The position numbers and the translations under genes are program-made. This document shows, in pieces, positions 17,559 through 55,667 of a stretch of DNA of 58,722 bases (position 1 is its first letter; every line of letters begins with the position of its first letter). The notes below the pieces were generated by a model. It was not told the DNA's origin. It made no database searches and was given only the letters and a program-made list of their open reading frames with translations. Origin of the DNA: an uncultured bacterium (GTDB lineage Bacteria; Armatimonadota; UBA5829); NCBI GenBank assembly GCA_964523735.1, contig CAZFYZ010000007.1, positions 1 through 58,722 on the forward strand. Direction: 5' to 3'.

Positions 17559-20500
17559 TCAGCTCAGTGTTGCGCCAAGAGAGTGGATGCGCGGATAGAC
17601 CAGGTTGTTGCCGGTGAGGATGGCCTTGTAGCGAACGCGGGTGCCCGCGGGATTGGTGAATGTGCGCAGGTAGACGTATTCGGTCCAGGTCTGGTCAACC
17701 TCGCGAGTCGAATCGAGCGCCATCGGCTCCCACGTAGCGCCGCCGTCGTTTGAGGTGAACCACTCCATCGAGCACCCGCTGGGTATGTTCATCTGTGCGT
17801 AAACCTTGGTCGATTCCACCCCTTGCGTAAGCTCATTCTCCCGGCTGATGTACGTGCCGCTGGGGCTATTGAGATAGCCTATGAGGTTCACGTCGAGGTA
17901 ATTCAGAGCCGGAGTGTCGTTTGGCGTGCTGCTTGTGAGCCTCGCCCGGACCGTGATCTGCGCGGCCACATTCGGCAAGCTCTCCTCCTCTTCGGGCACT
18001 ATCGCATCCCACGAACTGCCGCCATCGGTCGAGTAGTCCCAAGTGATGCCCGTGCGCTGCGGAATGGAGGAGTACTCATCCAGGTTGATGTCGGTGAACT
18101 GCACCCCCGTCACAGGCTTGAAGCGCACCTCACCCTCGGCCTCGAAGTCGAAACCGTAGATCCGCATCGCAAGGTCGGAGCCGTTGAGTGGAGTCCAGGT
18201 CTCGGCGTTGGAGCTTTCAAGCAGGGCACCCGCCGCATAGGTCTGCTTGGTAATGACCCCATTCTGCCCCATCTGTCCGAGGGTCGCTACGCGCACGCGA
18301 TAGTTGGTGCTGTCGGTGAGAATGACTACAGCGTAGCTGGTGTTAGCATCAGCGCTCATGGGATTGCTGAACATGACCTTGGTCTCGGCGTTCAGGTTCA
18401 CCTCGGCCGGCGAGACGACCTGCTGGGCGTATATGACGTCGTTGGGCAGTCCCGTGGTGACTCCGCGAATCTGCACGGTCACGGGAGTGGACGCGTCCTT
18501 CTTCGTGAAGTAGATGCCAACTGCGGAGATGACCCTGTTCTCGGTGAAGCTGAACGTCTGCGCGAGCGGGTCCCACCTGTTCCAGCCCCACCACCATCGC
18601 CACACCGTACGAATCACAGGGACGCGGATGATCCGCTCCTGGATGATGGTCTGCTGTTGGATAATAGTATTGGTGACCTCGACACGTTCGACCCGAGTCA
18701 CGACCAGCGGGTCGTTTATCTGCAGACTGGCCTGAGCGGAATACGTGCCGTCAGTGACTTCGACGATCCGGCTGCCGTTGCTGGCGCTCTCCGGGATGAC
18801 AAATGATGATGTCACCCGCCCAGCAGCATCGGAATGAACGTCTGTCGCGACCACCTGGCCGTCGCAACGGATGGTAATATGCTCCGCGCTGGGAGTGAAG
18901 TTCGATCCAGTGACTGCGATCCCAGTCTGTCCCCTGCGGCCAATGTTCGGGGTCACCTCGACCGTCGCCGGAGGCTTTTCGAACACGGCGTAGGGATTGA
19001 TGTTCTTCTCCTCAGACCAGTCGAGCTGCTGTGCGAGCACCTTTTCAGTGCCAGGCAGGAGAACGAGGCTGCCCGCAAAAAGTGCGCTGCTCGCGGCGGG
19101 ATTGACCTGCAGAACACGTGAAGTCGCGGCACGGGCAGGTGCTACGAACTTGCGAATACCATCAACGCGCGCGCTCCATTCGGAGTGGAATGTGTCCGAT
19201 TGAGCTTCGTTGGAGAAGTCATCTGAGTAGATGCCTTTCTTGGTTTGCGCGTCCCTGTTCTGCAGTTCGTTGTTCATCTGATACTGCGCGTCGTTGTATT
19301 TCAGGTCCTCCACGTCTTGGATCATCTGGTGGATCTGGGACATGGTGATCCGTGTGAGACCGAAGTTCCGGATCGTCATCGCGACCGAATCGGCCGGGCA
19401 GTCGACGCTGCACAGAGCCAGGCTTCCCTCCGGCACTATCGGGAGCTTTGGAAAGTCCGAGGGCGCGCCCTCGATACGTTTGAGTTCTCGAGCTGTCGCA
19501 TAGATGATGTCCTTCCTACCGAGGTAATAGTCGTAGTCGATGCTGCAGTTCGAGCCGTTCACGGGATCACTGCCGACTCCGTTTCTGCCGAAGTTGATGA
19601 CACTTGTGTTCCCCGGGGCCATCTCGGGCGAAGGCTGGGAGAGTCCACTGGAGTTAGACGCTGGCGGCGTGCTGGTCGTGGCCTCATCCACGGCGTCGTC
19701 GATGTATGATGTGACTCCCGAGCCTACTTCCTTAAGCCTCTCAAAGCTCGTCCTGCCCGTATTGGGCGACGCCCGGTATATGCGATAGCCTGTAGCGCCG
19801 CTTATCGGCTTCCATGTAATAAGGTTAGCCTCTCCAGCGGCCGTCTGGCGTGAGACGACCCGACCGCTGATGTATTCGGTCTCGCCAGACGCCGAGAGCG
19901 CCGTGACCACATAGAAGTACTCGGCTGCGGCGGGATAGCCGGAGCGTCCGAACCACCCGCCATCGACATAGTCCGTACCCTCGATCATCTGCTTCACATA
20001 AGTCCAGCGGACGGTGTAGGTCGTCCCTATCGCGGGCTCACTGCCACTGCCCAGCCAGTCGACATAGTTGCCGCTCTGCTGCCAATCAGTACCTTCGGCG
20101 AAAACCGTCGCGCCCTGGCTCACCTCGATAATGTCCACGACAGGATTCGGCACGAGCAAGTCCTCGCCGCCACCGACCGATCCACGCGTGATGTTCGAGA
20201 CTATCTCCACTATCGCCTCGACCTGGGTGGTCTCTTTGAGAGGTGTACAGTTCAGGGCGTAGCTGCGCTGGCCGGTGACGAACGTCTTCTGTTCTCCCCG
20301 AACACTCTTGGTCGCGACCGACTTGGGAACCACGGTTGTCGTCGGCAGGTCCTTCTGGAGACGATATCCCTGTATGTATGCGCGGCCTGCGTTGGTGATG
20401 ACCCGCACGCTTGCGCCGTCGTTTGAGCCGATGAAGCTGTCGAATCCCTTGACGAGATAGCTGCCCGCCTGGTCGTAAGTCCTTTCCGCCAGGTTATTGA

Positions 20501-21143
20501 GGAGGGAGTTCAGACCCTCGGCAGCGGCAAAGGAAAGCTGGTCCTCGGTAATAGACGCGACCGTTATGCGGCTGCCAGGTAGAGTGCCCAGGAAGTCACT
20601 GAGGTAGATGCTGGACTTCTCCTGCACCGTCGCCGTAACATCACCACTATCGCGGTCGAACTTGTATATGGGAACCACTTTACGCTGCGTGACATTACTT
20701 GGCAGGCTCTCGCCGCTCGTGTCGTGATCCCTGAGAGAGAGGACCCATTTCTCTCGCTCCGCTGTCTGCTCGCCTGTCGCAGGGTTGATAAGCCCAGCAT
20801 CCTGGTTGTAACCATAGTTAGACTTCAAAAGCTCGACGTACACATAGTCGACGCCCGAAGTCTTTGCCGGATCATAGGTAAGGACCGCGCCCGGTACGCT
20901 CTCGATATGCCCGTCGATGTAGGTGACACCGGCTGACACCGTGACCACGTTACCCGCGACCGTCACTACAAGCCCGGAGATTATCGCTCCCTCCTTGAAG
21001 AGCAGGTCGGCGACTTTCTTGTGCTCATTGATGACGATGTCCTGGGCTTCGTTTAGCTCCGAGTCCAGCAGGTCTCTGTCCTGATGGTATCTCACCCGCT
21101 TATAGTTCTTGGTCGGGTCGAATGTGTTTCTGGAGATGGTCAA
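17559..21143 (-). CDS. large tail fibre / host-recognition protein (DUF4815-like N-terminus, FN3-like and IPT/TIG-like modules)
   Basis: 1194-aa ORF. The N-terminus FDPTKNYKRVRYHQDRDLLDSELNEAQDI resembles DUF4815 phage proteins (recollection). ITWKPISGATGYRIYRAS is FN3-like. VEVTPNIGRRGQTGIAVTGSNF is IPT/TIG-like. It sits at the distal end of the tail module. Confidence 0.75.
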   Translation of the reverse strand: MTISRNTFDPTKNYKRVRYHQDRDLLDSELNEAQDIVINEHKKVADLLFKEGAIISGLVVTVAGNVVTVSAGVTYIDGHIESVPGAVLTYDPAKTSGVDYVYVELLKSNYGYNQDAGLINPATGEQTAEREKWVLSLRDHDTSGESLPSNVTQRKVVPIYKFDRDSGDVTATVQEKSSIYLSDFLGTLPGSRITVASITEDQLSFAAAEGLNSLLNNLAERTYDQAGSYLVKGFDSFIGSNDGASVRVITNAGRAYIQGYRLQKDLPTTTVVPKSVATKSVRGEQKTFVTGQRSYALNCTPLKETTQVEAIVEIVSNITRGSVGGGEDLLVPNPVVDIIEVSQGATVFAEGTDWQQSGNYVDWLGSGSEPAIGTTYTVRWTYVKQMIEGTDYVDGGWFGRSGYPAAAEYFYVVTALSASGETEYISGRVVSRQTAAGEANLITWKPISGATGYRIYRASPNTGRTSFERLKEVGSGVTSYIDDAVDEATTSTPPASNSSGLSQPSPEMAPGNTSVINFGRNGVGSDPVNGSNCSIDYDYYLGRKDIIYATARELKRIEGAPSDFPKLPIVPEGSLALCSVDCPADSVAMTIRNFGLTRITMSQIHQMIQDVEDLKYNDAQYQMNNELQNRDAQTKKGIYSDDFSNEAQSDTFHSEWSARVDGIRKFVAPARAATSRVLQVNPAASSALFAGSLVLLPGTEKVLAQQLDWSEEKNINPYAVFEKPPATVEVTPNIGRRGQTGIAVTGSNFTPSAEHITIRCDGQVVATDVHSDAAGRVTSSFVIPESASNGSRIVEVTDGTYSAQASLQINDPLVVTRVERVEVTNTIIQQQTIIQERIIRVPVIRTVWRWWWGWNRWDPLAQTFSFTENRVISAVGIYFTKKDASTPVTVQIRGVTTGLPNDVIYAQQVVSPAEVNLNAETKVMFSNPMSADANTSYAVVILTDSTNYRVRVATLGQMGQNGVITKQTYAAGALLESSNAETWTPLNGSDLAMRIYGFDFEAEGEVRFKPVTGVQFTDINLDEYSSIPQRTGITWDYSTDGGSSWDAIVPEEEESLPNVAAQITVRARLTSSTPNDTPALNYLDVNLIGYLNSPSGTYISRENELTQGVESTKVYAQMNIPSGCSMEWFTSNDGGATWEPMALDSTREVDQTWTEYVYLRTFTNPAGTRVRYKAILTGNNLVYPRIHSLGATLS

Positions 21144-43285: not shown

Positions 43286-44149
43286 TTACGGCAGTATCTT
43301 TATCTTCGCGAGAATCTCGGGGCGAGTGATGCCCTGACCGAGTTCAGTCCAGACGAGCCAACCAGTCTTGAAGCGGGTCTTCTGCTCGATAGCCTCGGTC
43401 TTCAGGGACTCGCGAATAGGCATCTTGCCTACCTCGTCGTCCGGCAGCAGCAGAATCTCGCTCATATCGGCGGATGCAGTCAGCATAATGCCACCCGTGC
43501 CGTAGTTCTTGATGACACCCTTTGTGCGCAGTTCGGCGCGTGTCTCCGGGTCAAGATCCCAGTCGCGCATGTCGTTGAAGCGCCGCCCGCGCATCACGAT
43601 GTACTTGACCGAGAGCTCAAGGTCCTCGATGATCGAGATGGCCTCGTTAAGGGCGTCGTCGGTGAGCTTGCCACCGGTGACCTCGATTGTGTTCGCTGCG
43701 GGCACTGCTGCAGAGAGGACCGTGAGTGTTCTCTTGTCGACCTCCTTACGAATCTCGTCGGCCGCCGAGGTCTGTATGTCCATCAGGGTGCCGATATTGC
43801 CGTTCTTGAGGACACTCACATCGACCATTGGAGTCGAGTGAATCCGGTTGGTCGGGAACTCGACTTCGTCCTGTCCGAGTTCCTGCTCGCGGGCCTCGCC
43901 CTCCGTACTGATCCAGTAAGCCTTTACCTTGGGCTTCTTCTGGTAGATCGGGCGCTCGCCTTTCGGGAGAGTGTGCTGGGTGAGAAGAAGCGAGGTGATT
44001 TCCTTGCGCTTTATCTCCTCGTCGATGGGAGCCGCTATCGCTGCCGCCAGCGCACGCATCCCATCGGGAGACTCCAGGGCTTCGCTCATCAGGCGAGCCA
44101 TAGTCTCCATGTATTCCTGGCTGTGAATATTCACCTGGGTCGGTTCCAC
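43286..44149 (-). CDS. major capsid protein (HK97-fold type, no delta domain)
   Basis: 287-aa ORF after a DUF2190-like decoration gene and a scaffold gene, matching the lambda C/Nu3-D-E gene order. Size and composition are typical. No diagnostic motif was verified. Confidence 0.7.
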   Translation of the reverse strand: MEPTQVNIHSQEYMETMARLMSEALESPDGMRALAAAIAAPIDEEIKRKEITSLLLTQHTLPKGERPIYQKKPKVKAYWISTEGEAREQELGQDEVEFPTNRIHSTPMVDVSVLKNGNIGTLMDIQTSAADEIRKEVDKRTLTVLSAAVPAANTIEVTGGKLTDDALNEAISIIEDLELSVKYIVMRGRRFNDMRDWDLDPETRAELRTKGVIKNYGTGGIMLTASADMSEILLLPDDEVGKMPIRESLKTEAIEQKTRFKTGWLVWTELGQGITRPEILAKIKILP

Positions 44150-44163
44150 TTATACCTCCGTCC

Positions 44164-44526
44164 TTAGATCAAGAGGCGGAACTTCAGCGTCCCGCTCGAA
44201 GCAGATATGGCCTCCGCGACGACCTGGTCGCCTACGCCTACGCCTGCGGTGAGTTTGCCGCCTGCGGAAACCTTGAGATCGTCACCCGCGTTGATGTTGC
44301 CCTCGTAGACGTCGGTCTCATAAACACCGCCCATGCAGAAGACGCCGGGCATCTCGCCTGCCTTGTAATCCTTTATGAGGACGCCGAAGCTCTTTGCAGC
44401 CGGGTCAGTGTTGACGGCGAAGAGGTCGTTGCCAACCAGCTTCACGAACTGGCCGCACGACCCCGCGCTCTGCATGTATCCGTCGCCGTAAGCGAGCCCT
44501 CGATGATTTGGGTTGAGAAATGGCAC
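44164..44526 (-). CDS. head decoration protein (DUF2190-like)
   Basis: 120-aa ORF. GQFVKLVGNDLFAV, GVLIKDYKAGEMPGVFCMGGVY, INAGDDLKVSAGGKL and VAEAISASSGTLKFRL fit the DUF2190 pattern. Confidence 0.7.
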   Translation of the reverse strand: MPFLNPNHRGLAYGDGYMQSAGSCGQFVKLVGNDLFAVNTDPAAKSFGVLIKDYKAGEMPGVFCMGGVYETDVYEGNINAGDDLKVSAGGKLTAGVGVGDQVVAEAISASSGTLKFRLLI

Positions 44527-44537
44527 GATGAACCTCC

Positions 44538-47500
44538 TTAGTTACTCTTGCCGGAACCCGCGAGACCAACCCGCTCACGGTAGGCAGTCATGAACCCGTC
44601 GCGGAGCTTGTCCTCGAGGGATACTTTCTTGTCGTCTACTTCCAGTGGGCGAACGTCCGCGTGGGAGCGCATCTGTCGATCCGCCGATGCCGAAGCGGAA
44701 TTCTCCTTCTCGCCAGCGCCCTTGTCATCGTCCTGCTTCGCAGCATTCGGACACTCAGACTTGGTCTGCACGGCCCTGTCATAAGCTGCCTCGGTAGCGG
44801 TGAATGCATCGTCGGAGAGCCCGGCGAGTCGGTTGATTTCCTGGTCCCTGTCCTCATCCGAGGCAAATGACATTCCAGCTTTTTCCAGCTTCTTCAGGAG
44901 CTTCTGCGCACGGGTCTTGTTGGCGGCTGCTTTGCTCTCCGCCTCCAACTCCTGGACCTGCTTTTGAAGCTCAAGCACCTGATTCTGAAGGTCTTTGTTC
45001 TCGGCCTCAAGCTCCTTTATGCGGGTCTTGTCATCGACCGCAGGCGCGGCCCCGCCGCCCGGGGCATCGCGTTTCTTCGCAGCCTCAAGCTGCTCTTCGT
45101 TGTCTTTCTGAATGTCGTCCACTGAGTTGCCTCCTGTGTTGTTACAACTGCATTGATTTGCCTCATGCGAGGCGACTTGTGTTATTCGCGCGTTTTCATC
45201 AGCGCCCTTGCGGTCCAAGAGTCCAAGGCCAGTGAATGTTACGCCGTGCAGGATTTCAAAGACGGGCTTGCCCTGATACTGCGCACCCTTGAACTTGCGG
45301 AGATGGACGCAGTAATCGTCTTTGCTGGTGACTCTCTTGCCGCAGATGGAGCACTCCCCGGTTTCATAGTCACACTCCATCGACACCTGGGTTATGATCC
45401 CGCGTTTCATGAGCTTGTAGGCCAGGGCGGCCGTGGGCGAATCGGTCGCATATAGCTCGCCCACGCACTCGACGCGCCCACCGGTTTCGTCTTCAACGAA
45501 GTCGGCCGCCATTATCCCGCCTACGATGTCAGTGAGTTCCTGGGAATGCTTGAGATCGATCTTCTTGTTGATAGCCGTGGTGTAGCGAGCCGCCAATTCG
45601 TCCGGGGTGAAATGGTCACCGTTTTTGTTGGTGCCCACGCGGCACATTATGAAGCTGAACTGCGGATCCCCCGCATTGGGGTTGAGGTCAACCGCTTCGG
45701 TTGAGAGTCCGTCTCTAACCTTGAGACTCACTTCCACGGGGATAGCTGTGTGGCAGTTTGAAGCACTAGCCGAGGCGATTGACCTTGGAGCCTGCCTGGA
45801 ACCCGATGCGATGAAAAGCAGTTCCCGCGCGTTCTTTCCTTCGCCGCCCTTGCCCATGACTATGCCGTATTCAACGTCCATGCCCTTGACCCGGACCTGA
45901 CCGAAGCGCTCAGCTAAGATGTCTTTGATCTCTTTCTCCGTTGGGAATGCACGGTCACGGTAGGACATGATCACGGTCTTGTATTTGCCGCGGGCTTCGG
46001 AGGCAAGGTTATCGATAAGGGATCGAATGGACTCCTTGTCATAGTGAGTGCGCGACTTGTAGCTTCGACGATTATCGTCGAGGAGTTCCTTATCCGCCCA
46101 GCGGTTCATTAGACCCTCGACGAAGTGCAGCGAGTACTCGTAGTCATTGTTCGAGAACTCAGTGATATACGGCGGGTCAAGATACAGCACATCCGCGCCG
46201 AACTTGCGCACGGCTTCGACCGCATCCCCTCGGAACACCTTGCATTCCTGTCCGCTATCGAAAACAAGCCGGTTAAGCTGGTTCGCGTAACGCTTGAAGC
46301 TCTCGACCATGCTGGAGATGGGAATGCTGGTGAGCTGGCTTTCTTTGAAACCACCAGCATACGCTCCCATCTCCGCTTCGGCATCTGTGCCGGATTCGCC
46401 CTTGAGATTGATCTTCGAGCGGTGGAACTGGCCGTAAAGGGCCTTTGCTTTCACAGTGTTACCGAGCGCCGCCAGCGCCAGGTCTTTCTTGTAGCCAGAG
46501 AGCTTCTGGATGTTTGCCCACACCTGCTCAAGCCAGGAGAGCACCTTCTTCGTGTAGTAATAACCGCTGAAGTTATCTACTATGAAGCTACCGGCATTGG
46601 GATTTGGCGCGAGTATTCGTTCAATATCTTCGTCTGAGAGCGTCTCATGAGAGTTCTCAACCACCGCCCGCGCGACGTGATACGGGAAGAGCAGGAGGTC
46701 GTTTGCTATGACCTTCAGCCCTTTACGCTTGAAGTGATATGCGACATTAGCCCCGCCGGAAAACGCGTCGACCACAGTCTTGGCATCCTTGGGAAGCTGG
46801 CGCTCGATCCAGCCGAGCATCACGTATTTGTTGCCCATGAAGCCCGTGACCTTGACCGGATCAGTTCCAGCCTGGCAGGAGAGCAGATCAAGGTCGCCAT
46901 CGAATGGCGAATCAGCCAGCGCCGCCAGGTTTTCATCGATGCGCGCGGTCACTTCCGGCGAGTGCCCATCCTCATCTGCCAGAGCGGATTTGCCGCCCTT
47001 GGTGCAGATAAACAGGCGCTCCATCGCAACCGAATTCTCGGAGTGCTTTGAGGAAATGTGATACTTGTGCTGCTGCGACTGCATTCGGCTGGACATGCCG
47101 CTTGCTGAGATGATGTCTTTCATCTCAGACTCGTTCGGGTAGGCATGGTCACGGTATGAGATGAGCCAGTTCGGAATGTGCTTCGCGCTCGCGAGAAACG
47201 TCGAGAAGAACTCGTTTGCATTCGCCTTGGTGACTGTCTTGTGTTCAGTCTGATAGTGTTTGGTCTTGGAATCCGTGACGAGCGTGAGCCCGTCCCAGTA
47301 GGTCATCAGACCCTCGACAAAGTGATAGCTCTTTTCGTAGTTGGTCGTGGAGAACTCGGTGGCGTAAGGCGGATCGAAATATGCCAGGTCGACCTTTGCC
47401 TCCGGCAGAACCTCATTGATGTCTTTGTTAAGGGCCTTACACTCTTTGCCGTTATCGAAGATGAGCGCATTGATGCGCGCGATGTTGTCGGCGAAACGCT

Positions 47501-48119
47501 CCCGGAACTCCTCGGGCGTGTCCTGTCGCTTTCCATAATCTGTGGATGAGGAGAAGTGACCAAAGCCGCCCTTGCCGGACATACAAGTTTTTCCGAGCGC
47601 AAAAAGAGCAATGTCCTTTTTGAAGCCCTCGAGCTTATCGGCGTTTGCGCGGATCTGGTCGATCACGCCATGCACGCCCTTAGCGAAGAAAATCCCTTTG
47701 AAGTTGTCTCGGACGAAGGTCCCAGCCTTTAGATTATCCGCTAAGAGAGCGGCAAGCTCGTCCTCGTCTATCCGGACGCTTGAGTTCTCAACAATTGCGC
47801 GCGCGGCGTGATAGCTATAGCGCAGCCGGTCGTTGGCGATGACCCGCAGGCCCTTAGTCTTGTACATGTAGGCCACAACGCCCGAGCCGGAGAACGCATC
47901 GATGACCGACCCGACATCCTCGGGCGTGTGCTTCCATATCCAGTCGATGAGCTTCTGCTTGGAGCCGATATAGTTGGTTATGTATTTCGGACGCTGGTCG
48001 GCTGGCAGTTCTTCAGTGACAAGCTCCGCAGCCTCGGCGAGAAGCTCGTCAAGGTGGCGCGATGCGTCCGTCTCCAGAAGAAAAGCAAGCCGATCATTGT
48101 CTGTGGCGAAAAGCTGCAT
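44538..48119 (-). CDS. fusion protein: two tandem Dam-like N6-adenine DNA methyltransferase modules plus prohead-protease-like domain plus coiled-coil scaffold
   Basis: 1193-aa uninterrupted ORF.
- Module 1 (aa ~45-375): YIGSKQKLIDWI, motif I IDAFSGSG, motif IV FDPPY (47364-47375).
- Module 2 (aa ~424-775): FMGNKYVMLGWI, VDAFSGGA, LDPPY (46167-46178).
- The two modules are clearly paralogous (KGLRVIANDRLRYSYHAARAIVENS versus KGLKVIANDLLLFPYHVARAVVENS).
- aa ~800-980: NKNGDHFTPDEL...KHSQ...FVEDETGG...QVSMEC resembles the S78-type prohead protease layout.
- aa ~1030-1085: coiled coil KELEAENKDLQNQVLELQKQVQELEAESK. Confidence 0.85.
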   Translation of the reverse strand: MQLFATDNDRLAFLLETDASRHLDELLAEAAELVTEELPADQRPKYITNYIGSKQKLIDWIWKHTPEDVGSVIDAFSGSGVVAYMYKTKGLRVIANDRLRYSYHAARAIVENSSVRIDEDELAALLADNLKAGTFVRDNFKGIFFAKGVHGVIDQIRANADKLEGFKKDIALFALGKTCMSGKGGFGHFSSSTDYGKRQDTPEEFRERFADNIARINALIFDNGKECKALNKDINEVLPEAKVDLAYFDPPYATEFSTTNYEKSYHFVEGLMTYWDGLTLVTDSKTKHYQTEHKTVTKANANEFFSTFLASAKHIPNWLISYRDHAYPNESEMKDIISASGMSSRMQSQQHKYHISSKHSENSVAMERLFICTKGGKSALADEDGHSPEVTARIDENLAALADSPFDGDLDLLSCQAGTDPVKVTGFMGNKYVMLGWIERQLPKDAKTVVDAFSGGANVAYHFKRKGLKVIANDLLLFPYHVARAVVENSHETLSDEDIERILAPNPNAGSFIVDNFSGYYYTKKVLSWLEQVWANIQKLSGYKKDLALAALGNTVKAKALYGQFHRSKINLKGESGTDAEAEMGAYAGGFKESQLTSIPISSMVESFKRYANQLNRLVFDSGQECKVFRGDAVEAVRKFGADVLYLDPPYITEFSNNDYEYSLHFVEGLMNRWADKELLDDNRRSYKSRTHYDKESIRSLIDNLASEARGKYKTVIMSYRDRAFPTEKEIKDILAERFGQVRVKGMDVEYGIVMGKGGEGKNARELLFIASGSRQAPRSIASASASNCHTAIPVEVSLKVRDGLSTEAVDLNPNAGDPQFSFIMCRVGTNKNGDHFTPDELAARYTTAINKKIDLKHSQELTDIVGGIMAADFVEDETGGRVECVGELYATDSPTAALAYKLMKRGIITQVSMECDYETGECSICGKRVTSKDDYCVHLRKFKGAQYQGKPVFEILHGVTFTGLGLLDRKGADENARITQVASHEANQCSCNNTGGNSVDDIQKDNEEQLEAAKKRDAPGGGAAPAVDDKTRIKELEAENKDLQNQVLELQKQVQELEAESKAAANKTRAQKLLKKLEKAGMSFASDEDRDQEINRLAGLSDDAFTATEAAYDRAVQTKSECPNAAKQDDDKGAGEKENSASASADRQMRSHADVRPLEVDDKKVSLEDKLRDGFMTAYRERVGLAGSGKSN

Positions 48120-48553
48120 GAATCACTCCGACACTCTTGGGCGCTTATTGCACGGCCCTAATCAGTTAAATGCCAAGCTAATCCAAAGAGTGTCTGAAAC
48201 TCCGCCAGTGGAGGTATGTCGTGGCTCAACTGGGATGCAGAGCCGTCTATCAAGGTTGTCTTGGCCAAAGGGGGCTGGCAGGCTGACTCACACTTGCGTT
48301 CTTCTGGCGGAATGGATAATAGCACCCACAGATGCAAACAAGTGTAGGGGGACATTATCATGACAAGAGGCGCGCACCGGGAGGCCGCGGCACAGAACGC
48401 ACATCGGCTTATTGAGCACAAAGGCGGGATTGTCAGAATTGCTGAGGCAATATGAATGGGGATACGCCCGCAGGTATTCTATGAACTGCGGGCCAGCGCA
48501 GATATCACGGGGCGTATAGTGGTCGAGTGCGCGATCAGTGCGCAACTCGGACG

Positions 48554-48895
48554 CTAGCCACGATGGTCCGCGATCATTTGACAGACCACTTTGGCGCACT
48601 CCTCCGCCATCGCGTATTCCTCTGTCTCGACTATCTCGCCCCGCATCCCACGGTACGGCGACATCGTTTCCCGGTGATACTCCAAGAAGCCCTCCGGCAG
48701 GCTCTTGATGTCGTTCTCTACCAGCCGGTTGATGATCCAGTCTGCATCCTCCTGGAACTCGTCGTTTCCCGTCAGGTATTCTATCACTACATCCAGTCCC
48801 GGCCCGTGGCCCTGCACCCAGACGCCGACAGGCTCGTAGTGCGGGTTCGTCTCCCGGTCCCGGAGAGCATACTCAAGCATATACCTAAGCCGCAT
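48554..48895 (-). CDS. hypothetical acidic protein (113 aa)
   Basis: Clean ORF overlapping the preceding ORF by 11 nt. No motif recognised. Confidence 0.5.
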   Translation of the reverse strand: MRLRYMLEYALRDRETNPHYEPVGVWVQGHGPGLDVVIEYLTGNDEFQEDADWIINRLVENDIKSLPEGFLEYHRETMSPYRGMRGEIVETEEYAMAEECAKVVCQMIADHRG

Positions 48896-49367
48896 CCCAG
48901 TCCTCCGCTATCCGAATGTGCTCCTCAAGGATCTGCGCGTCGATGACCGCGAACTCGGCGGCATTCTCCAACTTATAGCGCTGCCACTTCCGCCAGGCAA
49001 CGACATAGTCGTGTTCGGTCGCATCCATGATGAGTTCGACGTGATACCTGCGGCCTCGGTCATCGTTAAGGTCGATGAGATAGGTGTCGTCCTGGCTCCA
49101 GTCGACCACCTTGATAGTGTGCGTGTATTGGTAGCCGTTGTTGTAGCCGACTGACTTGAACATAAGCCAGAAGTCAGTCTTGGTGATATTGCCCGCGGCA
49201 TCGAAATATGGTGCAACGCGTGTCACGACGAAGCTGTCGATAAGGCCAAAGGGCAGCGGCGTATCGTGACCCTCGTGCATTACCATGATGGAGCCCTCTT
49301 TATTGAACTCATCAAAGAACGCCTGCAGCCTCTGCTTTTCGCTCGCTATGAACTCTTTCATACTCAC
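48885..49367 (-). CDS. hypothetical protein (about 158-160 aa) coupled to the MuF giant gene
   Basis: A GTG at 49367 overlaps the MuF stop, or an ATG at 49361 is preceded by GAGGTGA. No motif recognised. Confidence 0.55.
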   Translation of the reverse strand: MSMKEFIASEKQRLQAFFDEFNKEGSIMVMHEGHDTPLPFGLIDSFVVTRVAPYFDAAGNITKTDFWLMFKSVGYNNGYQYTHTIKVVDWSQDDTYLIDLNDDRGRRYHVELIMDATEHDYVVAWRKWQRYKLENAAEFAVIDAQILEEHIRIAEDWDAA

Positions 49368-52300
49368 CTCACAAGAACAATATCTGCGACATTGCGACCA
49401 TCGGGCAGCACTGATACTCCGTGCTTCGTGAATACCGCGAGCACTTTGGTTCGCTCCGACTGGCTCGGAACCACTATGGCTTCCAGGTTGTCCAGAAGCG
49501 TCACGGAGTGCTTCAGGATGGTCTCATTGCTGGTGTTGCGCGCGTAGGTCTTCCATGTCTTAGGATCTGAGCCCCGGTGAGAGGCGACGTAATCGTCGGT
49601 CACCTTGCCGTAGGCATCGTGGTTGTAGCTTATCGCATCAGTCCGGCGCAGCAGGCGCTTCTTGAAGTAGAGCCCGTTCTCGGACGAGCCGCCAGAGAGT
49701 GGTGACTTCTTGATTCGCGTGAACACATAGGACGCGCCTCCGCTGCGCATGTCAGCCTGCGGCGACATTCCACCCGGCGCAATCCCGGAGCGAACCTTCT
49801 CCACAGTGCTTACCAGCGCGCCATTATTCTCAAGGACGGTATCGAGGAAGCTCGACATCGAGCCGGAGTTCGTCAGATTGTGGTGCAGGCTGTATCCGGC
49901 CATCTCTTTCTCAAGCTGTTCGTCGGAGATGTCGAAGCGATACTGGTATCTGTAGCCTCCGCCGATCTTCCTGTCCTTGAAACCCAACTGATACTCCCCG
50001 ATTGGATCATAGCCAGGCAGTTTCGTGATGTCGGAGACACCGAGGCGCTTTGCCCAGAATCCGCGCATGGCCTGGATGCGTTCGGCCTTGGTGGCGCTCC
50101 TTGCGTCAAGGTCGGAGACTAGCTTCGTGTATTCCGGCTCGCGGTCGGCCTTGGTGATGTAGGCTTGCTTTGTGAGATACATTATCTCCGCGTCATCGGA
50201 GGTGGCGATATTGGCTTTGACTCCCAGCTTCTCCATGTGCTCAAGCGCCCTGTCCAGGCTCTTCGCGTCGGGTCGCTCTGGAAGAGATATCTCAAGCTCG
50301 CCGCTATGCGCATAGAGGTTCTTTGATCCCCAGGGTCTATAGGTCGCCCGGATGCCGTCGCCAAAGTCTATCTCATACTGTTCGCCGTCGGGCATTGGAT
50401 GGCCATTGAAGAGCGTGGTCGTGGTGGCGGATTCACTTTCCACTGCAAGCTCGCCCTTTGACAGACTCCGCTTCTCCATCACGGCCTTGGTCTTTCTGAC
50501 CGTGAAGTCTGTGGCTTTGTCCCTCTGTTTGGCTGGCACACTCTTCCTGAGATACGCCTCGAACTTCTCCTGGAGAGGAGTCTTATCCCTTACGGCCTGC
50601 TGGGTTCTCTCCAGCCAGCCGATGTAGGTTTCGGCCATCTGCCGCACCTCGGTATCGTCGGACTTGGCGAGCTTTCTGAGTTCGACCAGATGCTTTTCGG
50701 CCTTGTCCAGAGTCGACTGGTTGTAACTTCCGTCCCCCGCGTGATGATTCACTGTCTTCACCGCCGCGAGGATGTCGGATGCGAAGCTGTCTTCATCAAG
50801 AGGCTCCCCGACCTTGGGCGCGCTCACCTGTCTATCGGCTTTGCGAAGCGCGGGAAGTATCTTCGCTTCTGCTTCGGGCCGGAGCTTCATCTTCACGATT
50901 GTGTGAGTCTGGCCCTTGGCCGTCTCGGCGAAGACCAGAGCGTTCTGGTCCTCGATGTCGTTCTCATCGATTGGCAGAGCCTTTCCCTGCCAGCCCAGTA
51001 TCCGCGCCTCCTCGATGATCTGTTCCTCCGCTTTCCCGATCCGTCCCACAACCCGAGCCTGGGCTGCATCCTCGAATCGGAAATCTGGCCTACCGAGCAC
51101 GTCCGAGTAGAACCCCTCGAAGTCGCTGCGCAGGCCGTGTTTCCTGGCGAGCGCCAGATCATAGAATGCTTTCCTCTGAGCTGGGCTCTTGGCGAACCTG
51201 CCCTCCACATACGGACGCAGCATCGCCAGGTAGTCATCGTCGGATATCTTCTCGACCTCGCGAATGTAGCGCAGCGTCACTGATGGATCTACCGCCACCT
51301 TGCCCTGCTTCGCCGCGCGAAAGAGCGTGTTGTAGAATGGCTCGCTTTCCCCGCAGGCTGCATTGGGATGGTAGTCAACAGATAGCTTGTCCGAGCCGAG
51401 GAACTTGAAAAGCTGTCCCTTGTCGATACCGTAGACTTTTCCATTTTTCGCGCGCAGGAACTGCTTAGCGTGTCCGTCGTGATTTGAGATAAGCCAGTCC
51501 ACGACGTGCTCGCGCTGAACCTGGGCTATCTCGTCGGCGGATAGCTCGGTGACATCAAGGCCGGAGAAGTCATACTTGGCCGCGAGGTCATTCCGCCATT
51601 TCTGTATGGACCCGGTGCGACCATTGAGACGAATCGTCCTGACTTCGATGGCTTCCGGATCGATGAGGCGGCCTATCTTATACGCGGCCTCCTCGCCTTG
51701 GGCGATAAAGTCATCCGATGCCTTACCGACCGGCTTGAACATCCACTTGTGCCCGTCGGCGTCAGTCCAGAACTCTTTTTCGTGAGCGCCGCCGACGCTT
51801 GCTTTGCCCTCATATTTGAAGCTTTCGGACTTACCGTGTGCGGCCCAGGCGGTATCGGCGTCATCGAACTCGCTACCTTTCTTTGCGAATGTGTTCGTGG
51901 TCGCGGTTGTGACGCTCTCGCTGACAGGCTCTGGCTGTGTCTTCGGCACTGAATGCTTGGCCACTGGCTGAGCCGCTTTGCCGGGCTTCGCCAGATGCTT
52001 CTCGGCCCACTTGGCATGCTTTGCTTCAATGCTGGCCTTGGACGCCGCGATCTTCGCCGTGTCCGTTTCGGTGAACAGGGTAGCGAGTTCATCTTTCGAG
52101 GCCCACTGCCAGTGCGCGACCTTCGTCTGTTTTGCCAGATCCTTAAGCTCGCCGGACTTCATCCCCCCGATCTGCTGGGCGAACGTAAGCTTCTTCACCG
52201 CTATCTCCTTCGCGTGCTGCTCGATAACTGTGACAGGCAGACCCGAGTCCTTTGCCAGTTCGCTTTCGGCTGCTTTCACGGAGTCGAGGAAAGATGAGTA

Positions 52301-53965
52301 TTGCGTGGGAGACGACGGCATCACTATCTGTGTCGTGGCATCCTTTAGGGCCTGTTCGGCCTTCTGCAGCGCCTCCTGCTTCGCCACGTCAAGTGCCTGC
52401 TGCTTGGCCTGGTCTGCCATCTTTTGGCCCGCGACCTTCTCCAGGGCCTTGGCGAGCTGCTCTTTGTTCTTCAGAGGCGGGATGCCGAACTTCTGCTTGG
52501 CGGCGATTAAGGTCTTGCCGGAGTAGTTGTAATGGTCTATGTGCGGCTCAAGGCCGTCCAGCATCTCAATGACTTCGCTCTTAGTGAGATTCAAAGACAC
52601 GCCGTGTTGCTTGGCCATCACCTTGAGCTGGACCATCGTCATACTTGAGAGGTCACTCTGAGGTGCGGCGTTTTTTGCCGCTTCCTCCAGGACTTTGGCC
52701 TGCTTGATCGCTGCCTGCTTCTCCGCGAGTAGCTTAGCCAGATCGTCTTTGCTACGCAGAGCGGCAATATTATACTGCTTGATCTTCGCCTGCAGAGCCG
52801 CGCCGGAGAGATCGGCATGGCCAACACCCGGCTCCGCCGCGTCGAGGAGCTTGATGAAATCGGTCTTGGTGCGGGCGATAGCTATGCCATTACCTTTAGC
52901 GAGAGTCTGAAGCTGCTTCACCGTAAGACCCGACAGATCCGCGATCTGGCCCGACTCGAATGCATCCTTGAGCTTCTTCTCTTCCTCGGCCTGCTGCTTT
53001 GCCTGTTCGTGGATCGCCTGCGGGGCAAGAATACATGCATTGGTCTTTGCGGCTGCGACGGTGCCCAGTTCGCCACCACAAATAACCAGTGGCCACGCCA
53101 CGATGCTGGTGCATCGGCAGTTGGGATGCGCTGGCTGACTGGGGAAGCGGTCGATATCAAAGACCTTGCCATCGAGGCCACCGCAGACCGGGCAGGTCCG
53201 CTCGTCCTCCATCGTCATCCACTCAAGCTGGCTTACGCCGACCTCCTTGTGGAACTTGATGCGGCCCTGGTTGTGCGCACGCAGCACTTCGGTCCGCGCT
53301 ATCGTCTCCATCCGGTACTGCGCTTTTGAGAACACTTTGGATCCGGCTTGGCGGAAGCTCTCCTTGTCCTCGATGACGCTACCCATATCGCGAACGATGT
53401 CGCGGACGCTTTTGCCGGTGGTGATACCGGAGAGGATAGTGCGCTTGATGCCGCTCGCCAGTTCCTGATGCACGTCACCCAACAGGACCAGGTTGTAGTT
53501 AGCCATGAAGTCGAGCGCGTCAGTGTCGATGAGAGTGAACACCGAGGTCGTGAGCTTATCGATCCCGTCCGCTGTCAGGTCCCTGTAAAACGGCATCTGC
53601 GCCGCCGAGAACTCATCTATTCCGCGATATACGCCGGAGCGAAATGACGCCTGGCTCGCCCTCTTGAACATCAGGCTTTGGTCCTTCTTGAGCGCCTTCA
53701 TCGCCTCCTGAATCTGGCCGTCGAGTTTCTCCAGACCATTCATGGCGGCGAGCTTGTTCTCAGGAAGCGACCCAACATCCTTGTAGACGGAGAGCGCCTG
53801 ACGCACATGGTCCTGCGCGGACTTCAGTGACTGCGAAAGCTCAAAGGCCACTTGCTCGGCGTACATATCACGAGCCATCAGGCTCTTGCCGGTCGCCTCC
53901 CGGATGGCCTGGGGCTGCGCATCGAGGTCGGCGACGGCGCACATCATAGGGGTGGACAAACTCAC
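49364..53965 (-). CDS. giant MuF / SPP1 gp7-family head morphogenesis protein with HeH/SAP-like repeats, kinase-like module and extra C-terminal domain
   Basis: 1533-aa ORF.
- MuF core (aa ~120-292): YRMETIARTEVLRAHNQG...ERTCPVCGGLDGKVF...PAHPNCRCT.
- Five HeH/SAP/Rho_N-like motifs between aa 340 and 635, for example LSGLTVKQLQTLAKGNGIAIARTKTDFIKLLD.
- aa ~725-930: WMFKP, GEEAAY, DWLISNHDGHAKQF and YGIDKGQLF give a kinase-like K / E / D-x-H-x-x-N-type loop / D-x-G layout.
- The C-terminal ~350 aa are unassigned. Confidence 0.85.
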   Translation of the reverse strand: MSLSTPMMCAVADLDAQPQAIREATGKSLMARDMYAEQVAFELSQSLKSAQDHVRQALSVYKDVGSLPENKLAAMNGLEKLDGQIQEAMKALKKDQSLMFKRASQASFRSGVYRGIDEFSAAQMPFYRDLTADGIDKLTTSVFTLIDTDALDFMANYNLVLLGDVHQELASGIKRTILSGITTGKSVRDIVRDMGSVIEDKESFRQAGSKVFSKAQYRMETIARTEVLRAHNQGRIKFHKEVGVSQLEWMTMEDERTCPVCGGLDGKVFDIDRFPSQPAHPNCRCTSIVAWPLVICGGELGTVAAAKTNACILAPQAIHEQAKQQAEEEKKLKDAFESGQIADLSGLTVKQLQTLAKGNGIAIARTKTDFIKLLDAAEPGVGHADLSGAALQAKIKQYNIAALRSKDDLAKLLAEKQAAIKQAKVLEEAAKNAAPQSDLSSMTMVQLKVMAKQHGVSLNLTKSEVIEMLDGLEPHIDHYNYSGKTLIAAKQKFGIPPLKNKEQLAKALEKVAGQKMADQAKQQALDVAKQEALQKAEQALKDATTQIVMPSSPTQYSSFLDSVKAAESELAKDSGLPVTVIEQHAKEIAVKKLTFAQQIGGMKSGELKDLAKQTKVAHWQWASKDELATLFTETDTAKIAASKASIEAKHAKWAEKHLAKPGKAAQPVAKHSVPKTQPEPVSESVTTATTNTFAKKGSEFDDADTAWAAHGKSESFKYEGKASVGGAHEKEFWTDADGHKWMFKPVGKASDDFIAQGEEAAYKIGRLIDPEAIEVRTIRLNGRTGSIQKWRNDLAAKYDFSGLDVTELSADEIAQVQREHVVDWLISNHDGHAKQFLRAKNGKVYGIDKGQLFKFLGSDKLSVDYHPNAACGESEPFYNTLFRAAKQGKVAVDPSVTLRYIREVEKISDDDYLAMLRPYVEGRFAKSPAQRKAFYDLALARKHGLRSDFEGFYSDVLGRPDFRFEDAAQARVVGRIGKAEEQIIEEARILGWQGKALPIDENDIEDQNALVFAETAKGQTHTIVKMKLRPEAEAKILPALRKADRQVSAPKVGEPLDEDSFASDILAAVKTVNHHAGDGSYNQSTLDKAEKHLVELRKLAKSDDTEVRQMAETYIGWLERTQQAVRDKTPLQEKFEAYLRKSVPAKQRDKATDFTVRKTKAVMEKRSLSKGELAVESESATTTTLFNGHPMPDGEQYEIDFGDGIRATYRPWGSKNLYAHSGELEISLPERPDAKSLDRALEHMEKLGVKANIATSDDAEIMYLTKQAYITKADREPEYTKLVSDLDARSATKAERIQAMRGFWAKRLGVSDITKLPGYDPIGEYQLGFKDRKIGGGYRYQYRFDISDEQLEKEMAGYSLHHNLTNSGSMSSFLDTVLENNGALVSTVEKVRSGIAPGGMSPQADMRSGGASYVFTRIKKSPLSGGSSENGLYFKKRLLRRTDAISYNHDAYGKVTDDYVASHRGSDPKTWKTYARNTSNETILKHSVTLLDNLEAIVVPSQSERTKVLAVFTKHGVSVLPDGRNVADIVLVR

Positions 53966-55509
53966 TTACTCTCGACCCTCCCTTCGACTCCGTTTGGGAC
54001 ATGCCTCGCCTGAAGGAAGCGGCACGCCGGAGTGTCGAAGGTTACCTCCGCATGCGTGACTCCGCAGCGATTGGTCTCGTCACCGAAGTAGGCGCAAGCA
54101 TCACAGACCTGGCCTGCGTGTTCGCCGCTTGCGAAGATCCCGGCCCACGCAGCTTCCGAGCGCGATCCGACTGGAGGGTTCTTGGCCGGGTCGAGCCCGA
54201 GCATCTCCTGGGCGCTCTCGATACTCATTATTCCGGCCACCACCATGTCGACTATGGGCTTCACCTGCTTCTCATCAAGCAGATCCACCGACTGACCTTC
54301 GCTGAGCCGGTTGGCCTGCTCGATATCCGGGTCCAGGTCCATCTTGAGCTGTAGGCTGGACTTACTGATGAGCTTGCGGTCGTAGAGCTCGATGAGGAGC
54401 TTCTTAAAATCCACGGCGTCTGTCGGATCGAGATCGTTGAAGAGGAACTGCATGCTCTTGCCCGCGTGCCCGGAGAGCTCGATCCAGTCGTCATATATCC
54501 ACTCAAGAATCGTGCGAGCGGCATGCTTTATCTCCCGGATCATGATGAGCATCTTCTGCATCGAGACCGAGGCCGTGGCGAAGTTGGGACCGTCACCCGT
54601 AACCAATGACCGCGAAAGGCCCAGCGCCACAACGATGTCTTCCTTGACCTCTTTGACCTTATCCTCGACATTCAGGACTTGGCCTTCGGTCCCATGGGTT
54701 TCCACCGTCACATAGAAAGGCACCACGAGGCCACTCTTGAGGTCCATTTTGTTGACCATGTCCCGAACCTGCTCGAGCATCTTCTGGTCGGGCATCACCA
54801 GCTTCTGGCCGAATGCTCCGCCGACCTTGAGGAGTCGAAATGGAGTCGCCCAACGTTTGGCAATGGCCTGTTCCGCGCGCCGATAATCCCTGAGTAGCTC
54901 AATGGATTGGAAAGCGGGAAGCACGAGCGAGTTACCGCGAGGTGAGAACTCAGGGGCGTCCCACTTGATGTGCAGCGTCTGTTCCACCGGCAGCGCAAGC
55001 CCTTCACCGGCCGCCGGTGTGTCCTCGGGATACTGCCGTACCTCAAGGAGTTGTCCTTGCGAATACTTCACCTTGACTGATACTGGGTTGACGCAAGTGA
55101 CCTCCTCGATATCGCATCCATCCTTGGTATAGCGCTTGAAACCTACAGCATCACCCTTCACCAGAAGCTGGAGGATCATGTCTTTCACGAACTCAGAGAT
55201 GCCGAGTTTGTCAGCGAGTTCATTAGCCTCAGTCTTTACCACGTCTTCGTCGCTTGTGATCTTTATCTCATCTCCCACGGCGAACGTGCGCCAGGAGTTG
55301 ACGCAGTTTTTGACGAGCGGCTCCTCGACATAGTACTCCCAGGCTTTGCGCGCCCGGTCTTCCCAGGAAGCGGGAATTGCATCGTTGGCGCTCACGCCGC
55401 TAAAGGCGGACGCGTCGAGTGCGGCAGCGCTGGCCAGTGCGGGAACCACGATTGCGTATGTTGAGTTCTGCTCCTGGAACTCCTGGTCTTCAGAGTTGGT
55501 GCTATTCAA
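53962..55509 (-). CDS. portal protein
   Basis: Lies between the TerL and MuF genes. The stop overlaps the MuF start (ATGA). Start reassigned to a TTG at 55509 with AGGAGGA 5 nt upstream. The 47 upstream codons of the track ORF are Arg/Cys-rich and run into the divergent promoter. Confidence 0.8.
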   Translation of the reverse strand: MNSTNSEDQEFQEQNSTYAIVVPALASAAALDASAFSGVSANDAIPASWEDRARKAWEYYVEEPLVKNCVNSWRTFAVGDEIKITSDEDVVKTEANELADKLGISEFVKDMILQLLVKGDAVGFKRYTKDGCDIEEVTCVNPVSVKVKYSQGQLLEVRQYPEDTPAAGEGLALPVEQTLHIKWDAPEFSPRGNSLVLPAFQSIELLRDYRRAEQAIAKRWATPFRLLKVGGAFGQKLVMPDQKMLEQVRDMVNKMDLKSGLVVPFYVTVETHGTEGQVLNVEDKVKEVKEDIVVALGLSRSLVTGDGPNFATASVSMQKMLIMIREIKHAARTILEWIYDDWIELSGHAGKSMQFLFNDLDPTDAVDFKKLLIELYDRKLISKSSLQLKMDLDPDIEQANRLSEGQSVDLLDEKQVKPIVDMVVAGIMSIESAQEMLGLDPAKNPPVGSRSEAAWAGIFASGEHAGQVCDACAYFGDETNRCGVTHAEVTFDTPACRFLQARHVPNGVEGRVESK

Positions 55510-55639
55510 TCTTGTCCTCCTGTCGGATGTAGCGTTTGTTCGCGCCACGTTCGCCAACGTCGCGCGAGTGCACCGAAGTGCGGTAAATCGGCCGAGCGCA
55601 CAAGCAGGGCGCGAGTAGTCGGCAAAGTGAAGTCTCATG

Positions 55640-55667
55640 TTGCGCCGCACAGGCTTTGTGGTATAAT
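55640..55667 (+). promoter_or_regulatory. sigma70-like promoter for the toxin-antitoxin pair
   Basis: TTGCGC (55640-55645), a 16-nt spacer, then an extended -10 TGGTATAAT (TATAAT at 55662-55667), 43 nt upstream of the antitoxin ATG. Confidence 0.4.

Follow-up and report, generated by a model that had tools for sequence, protein, structure and literature searches.

The stretch of DNA analyzed here (the window) comprises 58,722 nucleotides (nt) from an uncultured Armatimonadota bacterium of the UBA5829 lineage (GenBank assembly GCA_964523735.1, contig CAZFYZ010000007.1, positions 1 to 58,722). Among its phage head genes it harbors a single open reading frame (ORF) in which two DNA adenine methyltransferase modules, M1 and M2, are joined to a prohead protease domain and a scaffold region. 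All 1193 codons of this ORF, at positions 44538..48119 of the minus strand, were found to be free of interruptions, in line with the single uninterrupted frame that a preliminary description of the window had placed in the scaffold slot of the head genes. The order within the protein of 1193 amino acids (aa) is N-terminal helix, M1, linker, M2, linker, prohead protease, linker and scaffold. The features of the gene are as follows.

44538..48119, minus strand: full-length fusion ORF, 1193 aa, from ORF calling and an AlphaFold2 (AF2) model.
46995..47990, minus strand: methyltransferase module M1, aa 44-375 (Pfam PF02086), with FSGSG at aa 76 and DPPY at aa 249-252 (nt 47364-47375).
45795..46859, minus strand: methyltransferase module M2, aa 421-775 (Pfam PF02086), with FSGGA at aa 453 and DPPY at aa 648-651 (nt 46167-46178).
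45663..45794, minus strand: disordered Ser/Ala linker forming the fusion junction and containing His790-Thr791.
45165..45662, minus strand: prohead serine protease domain, aa 820-985, from AF2 and Foldseek.
45130..45135, minus strand: internal Shine-Dalgarno (SD) motif AGGAGG, 7 nt upstream of an in-frame GTG.
44538..45122, minus strand: predicted nested scaffold gene of 194 aa, from the GTG at 45120-45122 (codon 1000) to the stop, based on the SD and the conserved start.

A phmmer comparison of the whole 1193-aa protein with the PDB gave no meaningful match, so that a fold search was needed. The full-length AF2 model, built on a family alignment of 40 sequences, contains four folded units with disordered linkers between them (aa 376-431, 774-817, 984-1029 and 1120-1167). 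The Ser/Ala linker that had been noticed between the modules and the C-terminal part was recovered as the sequence SIASASAS at aa ~784-791. Its His790-Thr791 motif is nearly invariant, and the same motif is N-terminal in the stand-alone protease-scaffold protein P0147; the motif is a mark of the ancestral protease-scaffold N-terminus, and a candidate processing site. A scan of positions 44100-49000 for promoters and terminators returned matches at chance level only.

The preliminary description had read the first part of the protein as two paralogous alpha-class methyltransferase modules and proposed a profile search as a check. This reading held, as the Pfam family MethyltransfD12 (PF02086) matched twice (E 5.9e-47, 161 bits against a cut-off of 22) and the two modules aligned with each other at 37% identity (E 1e-71), i.e. 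as paralogs. Motif I (FxGxG, here FSGSG and FSGGA) precedes the DPPY motif IV in both, which is the alpha-class order, and the best Foldseek matches in the PDB were structures of E. coli Dam (2ORE, 4RTJ and 2G1P; probability 1.0, target template modeling score ~0.6). The DPPY motif was kept in 401 out of 401 family instances, and 143 long family proteins had two full sets of methyltransferase motifs. The strict conservation of the S-adenosylmethionine (SAM)-binding and DPPY motifs in >240 proteins argues for retained catalysis. M2 is missing from a class of relatives of ~800 aa with one module. M1 appears to be self-sufficient, since these one-module relatives and also a free-standing M1 ortholog exist. 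The genes adjoining the fusion in the window are head genes, with no cognate restriction endonuclease among them, i.e. the methylase is an orphan. A k-mer analysis of the window gave no methyltransferase target, with GATC at 0.74 of expectation and FokI sites as expected.

For the C-terminal part, where a prohead-protease-like region and a scaffold coiled coil had been suspected and a check by AlphaFold and Foldseek suggested, an assemblin fold and a long helix were modeled. AF2 gave aa ~820-985, from an alignment of 44 sequences, a predicted local distance difference test (pLDDT) score of 95-98, and the top Foldseek matches in the PDB were herpesvirus assemblins, with a probability of 1.0. 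A fold search in BFVD retrieved gp19 of phage G (E 2.7e-18) and dozens of proteins whose names identify them as prohead protease, as COG3740 head maturation protease or as XkdF. PHROGs annotated as 'head maturation protease' match the C-terminal third as well (best phrog_18299, E 4.5e-6), and the sole phage relative of this third found by tblastn was again gp19 of Bacillus phage G, whose gene lies between portal and capsid and bears no annotation. As judged by the modeled fold, aa 820-985 are an assemblin/HK97-type prohead serine protease of a distant lineage shared with phage G gp19. His858 (nt 45546-45548) and Ser913 (nt 45381-45383) are invariant in both the 44- and the 40-sequence alignments and are, by their conservation, the putative catalytic residues, and the SMEC motif of the protease is kept in 238 out of 241 family proteins. 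The domain also contains an insert with a Cys923/Cys926/Cys937/His939 cluster (Cys-x2-Cys ... Cys-x-His, nt 45303-45353), invariant in distant relatives, which looks like a zinc knuckle; zf-C2H2 profile matches at this cluster were considered spurious. To our knowledge, a zinc-binding insert is not a feature of the described HK97 or T4 prohead proteases.

The scaffold part consists of a coiled coil with a 50-residue helix (aa 1031-1080), further helices up to aa 1120, an acidic disordered stretch and a conserved helix (aa 1168-1187). In the model, this succession of helix, acidic disorder and C-terminal helix matches the usual build of a scaffold protein. The AGGAGG ahead of it is the strongest SD motif of the entire fusion ORF, and the start at codon 1000 falls exactly at the boundary between protease and scaffold. 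Related loci were scored for an SD of at least 5 nt together with an in-frame start ~20 codons past the protease domain. Such an internal start was kept in 82 out of 83 loci from IMG/VR and reference contigs, the single exception having a weaker GGAGA ten nt before an ATG, and in 75 out of 79 loci from an independent set of bacterial genomes, i.e. in about 157 of the pooled 162. The start codon itself varies between ATG, GTG and TTG, and the SD is read in several registers, namely Gly-Gly (always GGA GGN), Gly-Asp, Gln-Glu and Glu-Gly-Asp. Because these differing registers occur inside a hypervariable linker, the constraint at the internal SD appears to act on the nucleotides and not on the protein. 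An internal SD and start were found also in the stand-alone protease-scaffold gene of the related prophage locus L007.

Consequently, we predict that the fusion gene is nested, with a long protease product and a scaffold-only product of 194 aa from codon 1000. No comparable start was found ahead of the protease domain in the fusion ORF of the window. In part of the one-module class, a second internal start recurs before the protease, at codon 393; as nothing in the window corresponds to it, it is not proposed there. As the window is without a start for a methyltransferase-free protease, every protease molecule would begin as a methyltransferase fusion. The preliminary description had assigned the ORF as a whole to the scaffold slot; the scaffold region is indeed present, but with a separate 194-aa scaffold predicted from codon 1000, the methyltransferases ride on the protease isoform, which is probably a minor component.

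The head genes of the window are arranged in the order terminase, portal, MuF, two small ORFs, fusion ORF, a 120-aa cement-like protein and a 287-aa capsid protein. The neighbors that bear on the role of the fusion are the following.

53962..55650, minus strand: portal protein, from profile matches.
49364..53965, minus strand: MuF-domain head protein of 1533 aa, the upstream neighbor (Pfam Phage_Mu_F; phrog_6577, function unknown).
44164..44526, minus strand: cement- or decoration-like protein of 120 aa, directly downstream of the fusion (phrog_673; Phage_cement_2, E 0.011).
43286..44149, minus strand: major capsid protein of 287 aa (phrog_2522, E 3e-85).

This order had been called lambda-like; the position within a head module was right, but the order is Mu/SPP1-like and not strictly lambda-like. 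Similarly, the DUF2190 decoration protein reported downstream finds a match in phrog_673, but is weakly supported by Phage_cement_2 (DUF2190), whose match (E 0.011) falls short of the cut-off. This 120-aa neighbor is kept in the related loci L002, L004 and L007, and in all three, as in the window, the protease gene is flanked by the portal/MuF genes on one side and by the major capsid gene on the other. In size, the capsid protein corresponds to an HK97-fold protein after processing, one that lacks a delta domain, and would for that reason require a separate scaffold. Among the other head-module genes of the window, no further match to a protease or scaffold family was found in Pfam or PHROG.

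A collection of 5.8 billion proteins gave 465 matches to the fusion, and the protease and scaffold parts were kept in all of the best 120 of these 465. The preliminary description, which knew of no described scaffold-methyltransferase fusion, had asked for a survey of homologous head modules and named a stop or frameshift between the parts as one observation that would undo the fusion. The survey showed the same fusion in hundreds of prophages, uninterrupted in >250 distinct sequences from independent assemblies. No description was found in the literature either, but the fusion is far from singular, and its one-module form is already present as PHROG 27806, labeled 'DNA methyltransferase'. IMG/VR contained 80 loci, mostly of the ~800-aa form N-M1-PR-SC (N-terminal helix, M1, protease and scaffold), and representative genomes, one per species, added 80 further loci with 36 intact two-module and 26 intact one-module genes. 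The prophage hosts belong to Armatimonadota, Desulfobacterota, Acidobacteriota, Nitrospirota, Planctomycetota, Verrucomicrobiota, Chloroflexota, Zixibacteria, Hydrogenedentota and others, with the closest relative of the fusion, at 90% identity, found in Armatimonadota. Cultured carriers include strains of Desulfosarcina, Syntrophus, Desulfobulbus and Desulfofustis, and intact fusions are present in the complete isolate chromosomes of Desulfosarcina alkanivorans, D. widdelii and Syntrophus buswellii. The position in the head module was conserved in D. alkanivorans and in one further genome, of 5.2 Mb. Together, these sequences place the fusion, in its one- or two-module form, in at least ten phyla, where hundreds of prophages and viral contigs carry it. 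Homologs are named in the databases solely as 'DNA adenine methylase' or 'Modification methylase FokI' (the latter in P0111). A tblastn search against deposited phage genomes found no close relative, and its matches were limited to two methylases (phi1605 and LlaI) and gp19 of phage G; the phi1605 match is a two-module methylase beside a type IIS endonuclease.

The likely origin of the fusion can be read from L007. In this locus, a cargo-free protease-scaffold gene of 392 aa occupies the same slot, between a portal/MuF gene and capsid genes of 119 and 283 aa, and a free-standing M1 ortholog (48% identity over the full length, E 2e-119) is located upstream of the terminase, at the start of the late operon. 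With a plain protease-scaffold gene and a separate M1 ortholog in one phage, the fusion appears to have arisen by transfer of the phage's own orphan methyltransferase onto the protease gene. The same locus has a single 720-aa gene with a weak Phage_Mu_F match (L007:5846-8008) between the terminase and the protease-scaffold gene, with no separate portal called, and this gene may be a portal-MuF fusion. Another presumed stand-alone protease-scaffold, P0128, was dropped, as its frame runs off the edge of a 1.5-kb contig and the linker motif is present.

An exhaustive search of the representatives with the protease domain returned 977 relatives, which differ in what they carry at the N-terminal site, i.e. 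nothing, M1, M1-M2, or an unannotated domain of ~90 aa that we call domain X. Domain X (consensus WEETxNEIRYRVxDPxxFxxDSFR...GKLKPExVPEG...QAYRF...AKEWI) occurs alone, doubled or combined with methyltransferases, and is placed ahead of the protease or between M1 and M2. It was found in P0125, P0132, P0141, P0145, P0150, P0159, P0052 (aa 379-488) and P0127 (aa 377-622), and is not part of the window fusion. A separate insert of ~125 aa lies between M2 and the protease in P0110-P0120 (aa ~761-886). Neither domain X nor the insert of the P0110 class gave a match in Pfam or PHROG. The fact that the same site takes both domain X and a second methyltransferase suggests that the N-terminus of the protease is a cargo position rather than a regulatory trick specific to methyltransferases.

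Nested protease and scaffold genes are known from lambda (C/Nu3) and Mu (I/Z), where an abundant short scaffold is made along with a rarer long form, and the common C-terminus takes the protease into the procapsid. The window gene resembles these in its long protease product, its in-frame internal scaffold start and its slot between portal/MuF and capsid. It differs from the described lambda and Mu cases in that its protease bears an unrelated enzyme N-terminally, and from lambda gpC, an S49/ClpP-type protease, in having an assemblin/HK97 fold (for the roles of the lambda genes, see PMC10695390).

By analogy with these systems, the methyltransferases are probably carried into the capsid. It is reasonable to take the fusion as predicting their targeting into the procapsid, all the more so because the window offers no way to make a methyltransferase-free protease. 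The course of events that we infer extends from the use of the internal start, via co-assembly, processing and retention in the head, to the site and time of methylation. The 194-aa product from codon 1000 would serve as the bulk scaffold for the 287-aa capsid protein, and the 1193-aa product, consisting of M1, M2, protease and scaffold, would co-assemble with it in the procapsid via the common C-terminus, since the same scaffold sequence ends both products. In this way every protease molecule would bring along two Dam-class modules with intact catalytic motifs. Once assembly is complete, the activated protease would degrade the scaffold and also cleave the linkers, which are disordered. The scaffold fragments would then exit the shell, and the methyltransferase domains of ~40 kDa, being too large, would remain with the DNA. 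The retained enzymes would either methylate the genome during packaging, or be co-ejected and protect the DNA from restriction in the next cell. That the long form co-assembles with the short scaffold, brings protease and methyltransferases into the procapsid and leaves the freed modules with the DNA is the course that we favor on balance. A further step, in which methylation inside the capsid is confined to packaged DNA so that every virion is fully modified, the enzymes possibly being ejected and the N-terminus acting as a modular cargo-loading site, is put forward only as a speculative extension, and one that we doubt. That this phage is under real pressure from restriction is shown by a strong restriction-avoidance signature in several 6-bp palindromes of the window: CGATCG was observed 0 times against 18.4 expected and GGCGCC 0 against 19.7, with further depletion of AGGCCT (2 against 14.2), AGATCT (4 against 17.9) and GCCGGC (8 against 28.2). 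The depletion of GATC is only a mild one (0.74).

Several points weigh against carriage into the head. The sequence-level support for the protease is weak, with Peptidase_S78 at 15.5 bits, below its gathering score of 21 (E 0.019). The full-length protein is cytoplasmic before assembly and may methylate DNA there, and capsid entry would then perhaps be irrelevant; L007 manages with a free-standing ortholog, i.e. encapsidation is not required for the basic role of the enzyme. Furthermore, co-assembly might be impeded by the bulky N-terminal cargo of ~88 kDa, the methyltransferases could be set free by early autoprocessing in the cytoplasm, and base flipping may be difficult in densely packed DNA. 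The linkers of the family yielded no definable protease cleavage motif.

Some of these points fit an alternative in which the fusion is a matter of co-expression only, a polyprotein that ties the methyltransferase to late expression. The rapidly replicating phage DNA would be fully methylated in the cytoplasm before packaging, and the enzyme, clipped off before assembly or destroyed in the procapsid, would have no function in the virion. The free-standing ortholog at the start of the late operon in L007 makes late cytoplasmic action likely to be ancestral, the linkers are long, disordered and polyprotein-like, and with the bulk scaffold made separately, the long form need not abound in heads. 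However, all prohead proteases of this fold known to us (HK97 gp4, T4 gp21 and the herpesvirus assemblins) act inside the procapsid, and here the fused protease is the sole one. The acceptance of domain X and of a second methyltransferase at the N-terminal site suggests a cargo position, and phages in at least ten phyla have retained the fusion. Co-expression is thus an explanation to be taken seriously, if a less probable one. It is quite improbable, on the other hand, that the modules are DNA-binding internal head proteins with a role in condensation, head-size control or ejection, their methylation being secondary or lost. The internal proteins of T4 and DarA and Hdf of P1 do show that internal proteins can affect head morphogenesis, but the SAM-binding and DPPY motifs are perfectly kept in both modules in >240 proteins. 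As for an artifact of assembly or annotation, in which a sequencing error joined separate methyltransferase and scaffold genes, indels do occur in such assemblies. The closest locus to the window, in an Armatimonadetes metagenome-assembled genome, is present as two prophage copies on one 511-kb contig (L089 and L126, CAVQDB010000004.1), and the fusion gene is disrupted by frame changes in both, which look like long-read indel errors or prophage decay. With the same uninterrupted fusion in hundreds of independent assemblies, including complete isolate chromosomes, an artifact is effectively refuted.

Head-loaded enzymes as such are not new. DarB of phage P1 is an adenine methyltransferase protein that becomes part of the head while the latter is being built, with ~45 copies in each head, and it is co-ejected with the other Dar proteins against restriction (PMC12810830); the window system, known from its genes, shares the type of enzyme. 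DarB-type polyvalent methylases are, however, of the gamma class with NPP(Y/F), accompanied by an LPD36 domain and a SWI2/SNF2-type (SF2) helicase (PMC5512222), whereas the window modules are alpha-class D12 enzymes with DPPY and without a helicase domain. Moreover, DarA and Hdf mediate the recruitment of DarB, which lacks a fusion to protease or scaffold, in contrast to the covalent attachment to the protease-scaffold seen here. Polyvalent proteins provide another parallel, being multidomain late phage proteins with effector domains N-terminal to an assemblin-like peptidase. According to Iyer et al. 2017, this peptidase is always C-terminal in the polyvalent proteins containing it, presumably with a role in virion assembly (PMC5512222). 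That paper makes no mention of scaffolds, a nested scaffold gene or D12 cargo, and in the window, unlike in polyvalent proteins, a scaffold domain comes after the peptidase, in a gene that lies in the phage's own protease/scaffold slot. MuF-fused effectors likewise have a head-morphogenesis protein as carrier of enzymatic cargo (PMC5512222), although MuF carries it C-terminally, and the window fusion has a different carrier with N-terminal cargo.

The enzymes targeted to the T4 capsid, i.e. IPIII, Alt and engineered fusions, enter the prohead core and are released by the protease; they then stay with the DNA until infection delivers them. Such enzymes are packaged at 20-200 copies per head, with ~72 copies of gp21 per prohead (PMC9026906), a precedent for the feasibility of the course favored here. 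The targeting device in T4 is an N-terminal propeptide of 10-19 residues, and in the window it would be the whole C-terminal protease-scaffold. The type IIS methylases M.FokI and M.LlaI also have two D12 modules per chain, but differ in having a cognate endonuclease adjoining. An arrangement in which each module serves one strand of an asymmetric site is not required, given the one-module relatives. A literature search turned up no account of a D12 methyltransferase joined to a prohead protease/scaffold, nor of such a nested scaffold gene. What seems to be new is the combination of D12 cargo on a protease-scaffold with a nested start; head-loaded anti-restriction and effector enzymes, and nested protease/scaffold genes, were known before.

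Should the enzymes indeed be taken into the head, they would provide a natural case of covalent loading of DNA-modifying enzymes into capsids, loading of enzymes so far being known from P1 Dar, T4 Alt and internal proteins, and engineered T4 fusions. It would allow a direct test of whether DNA can be modified enzymatically inside the capsid or by co-ejected enzymes, and the protease-scaffold would be available as a compact and portable module with which to direct foreign proteins into HK97-fold capsids. Apart from this, hundreds of 'DNA adenine methylase' entries hide the only protease and scaffold of a phage, and because the fusions bear this name only, annotation pipelines report head modules without protease or scaffold.

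The upstream MuF protein is itself a large multidomain protein. Its MuF domain spans aa 173-287, and a segment scan found a Rho_N/SAP-like DNA-binding motif at aa ~438-467 (27.5 bits) and a weak HipA-like kinase signature, below threshold, at aa ~809-836. About 700 of its 1533 aa gave no family match, and the region C-terminal to MuF gave no sequence match in the PDB. The counterpart in L002 is of similar size (1531 aa), compared to 528 aa in the D. alkanivorans prophage. The protein may be a second head-loaded multidomain effector. Upstream of the fusion gene lies a 435-nt non-coding gap (48120-48553). The matching place in L002 (5512-7668) and in L003 holds four to five reverse-strand genes, one of which has a weak HTH_Tnp_1 match, and the site may be an insertion hot spot within the head operon. 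Outside the head module, a 1194-aa DUF4815 protein is encoded in the tail/baseplate region (17559-21143, minus strand), and the left end of the window holds a ResIII/DEAD-box helicase gene that is read from the opposite strand (243-1787, plus strand).

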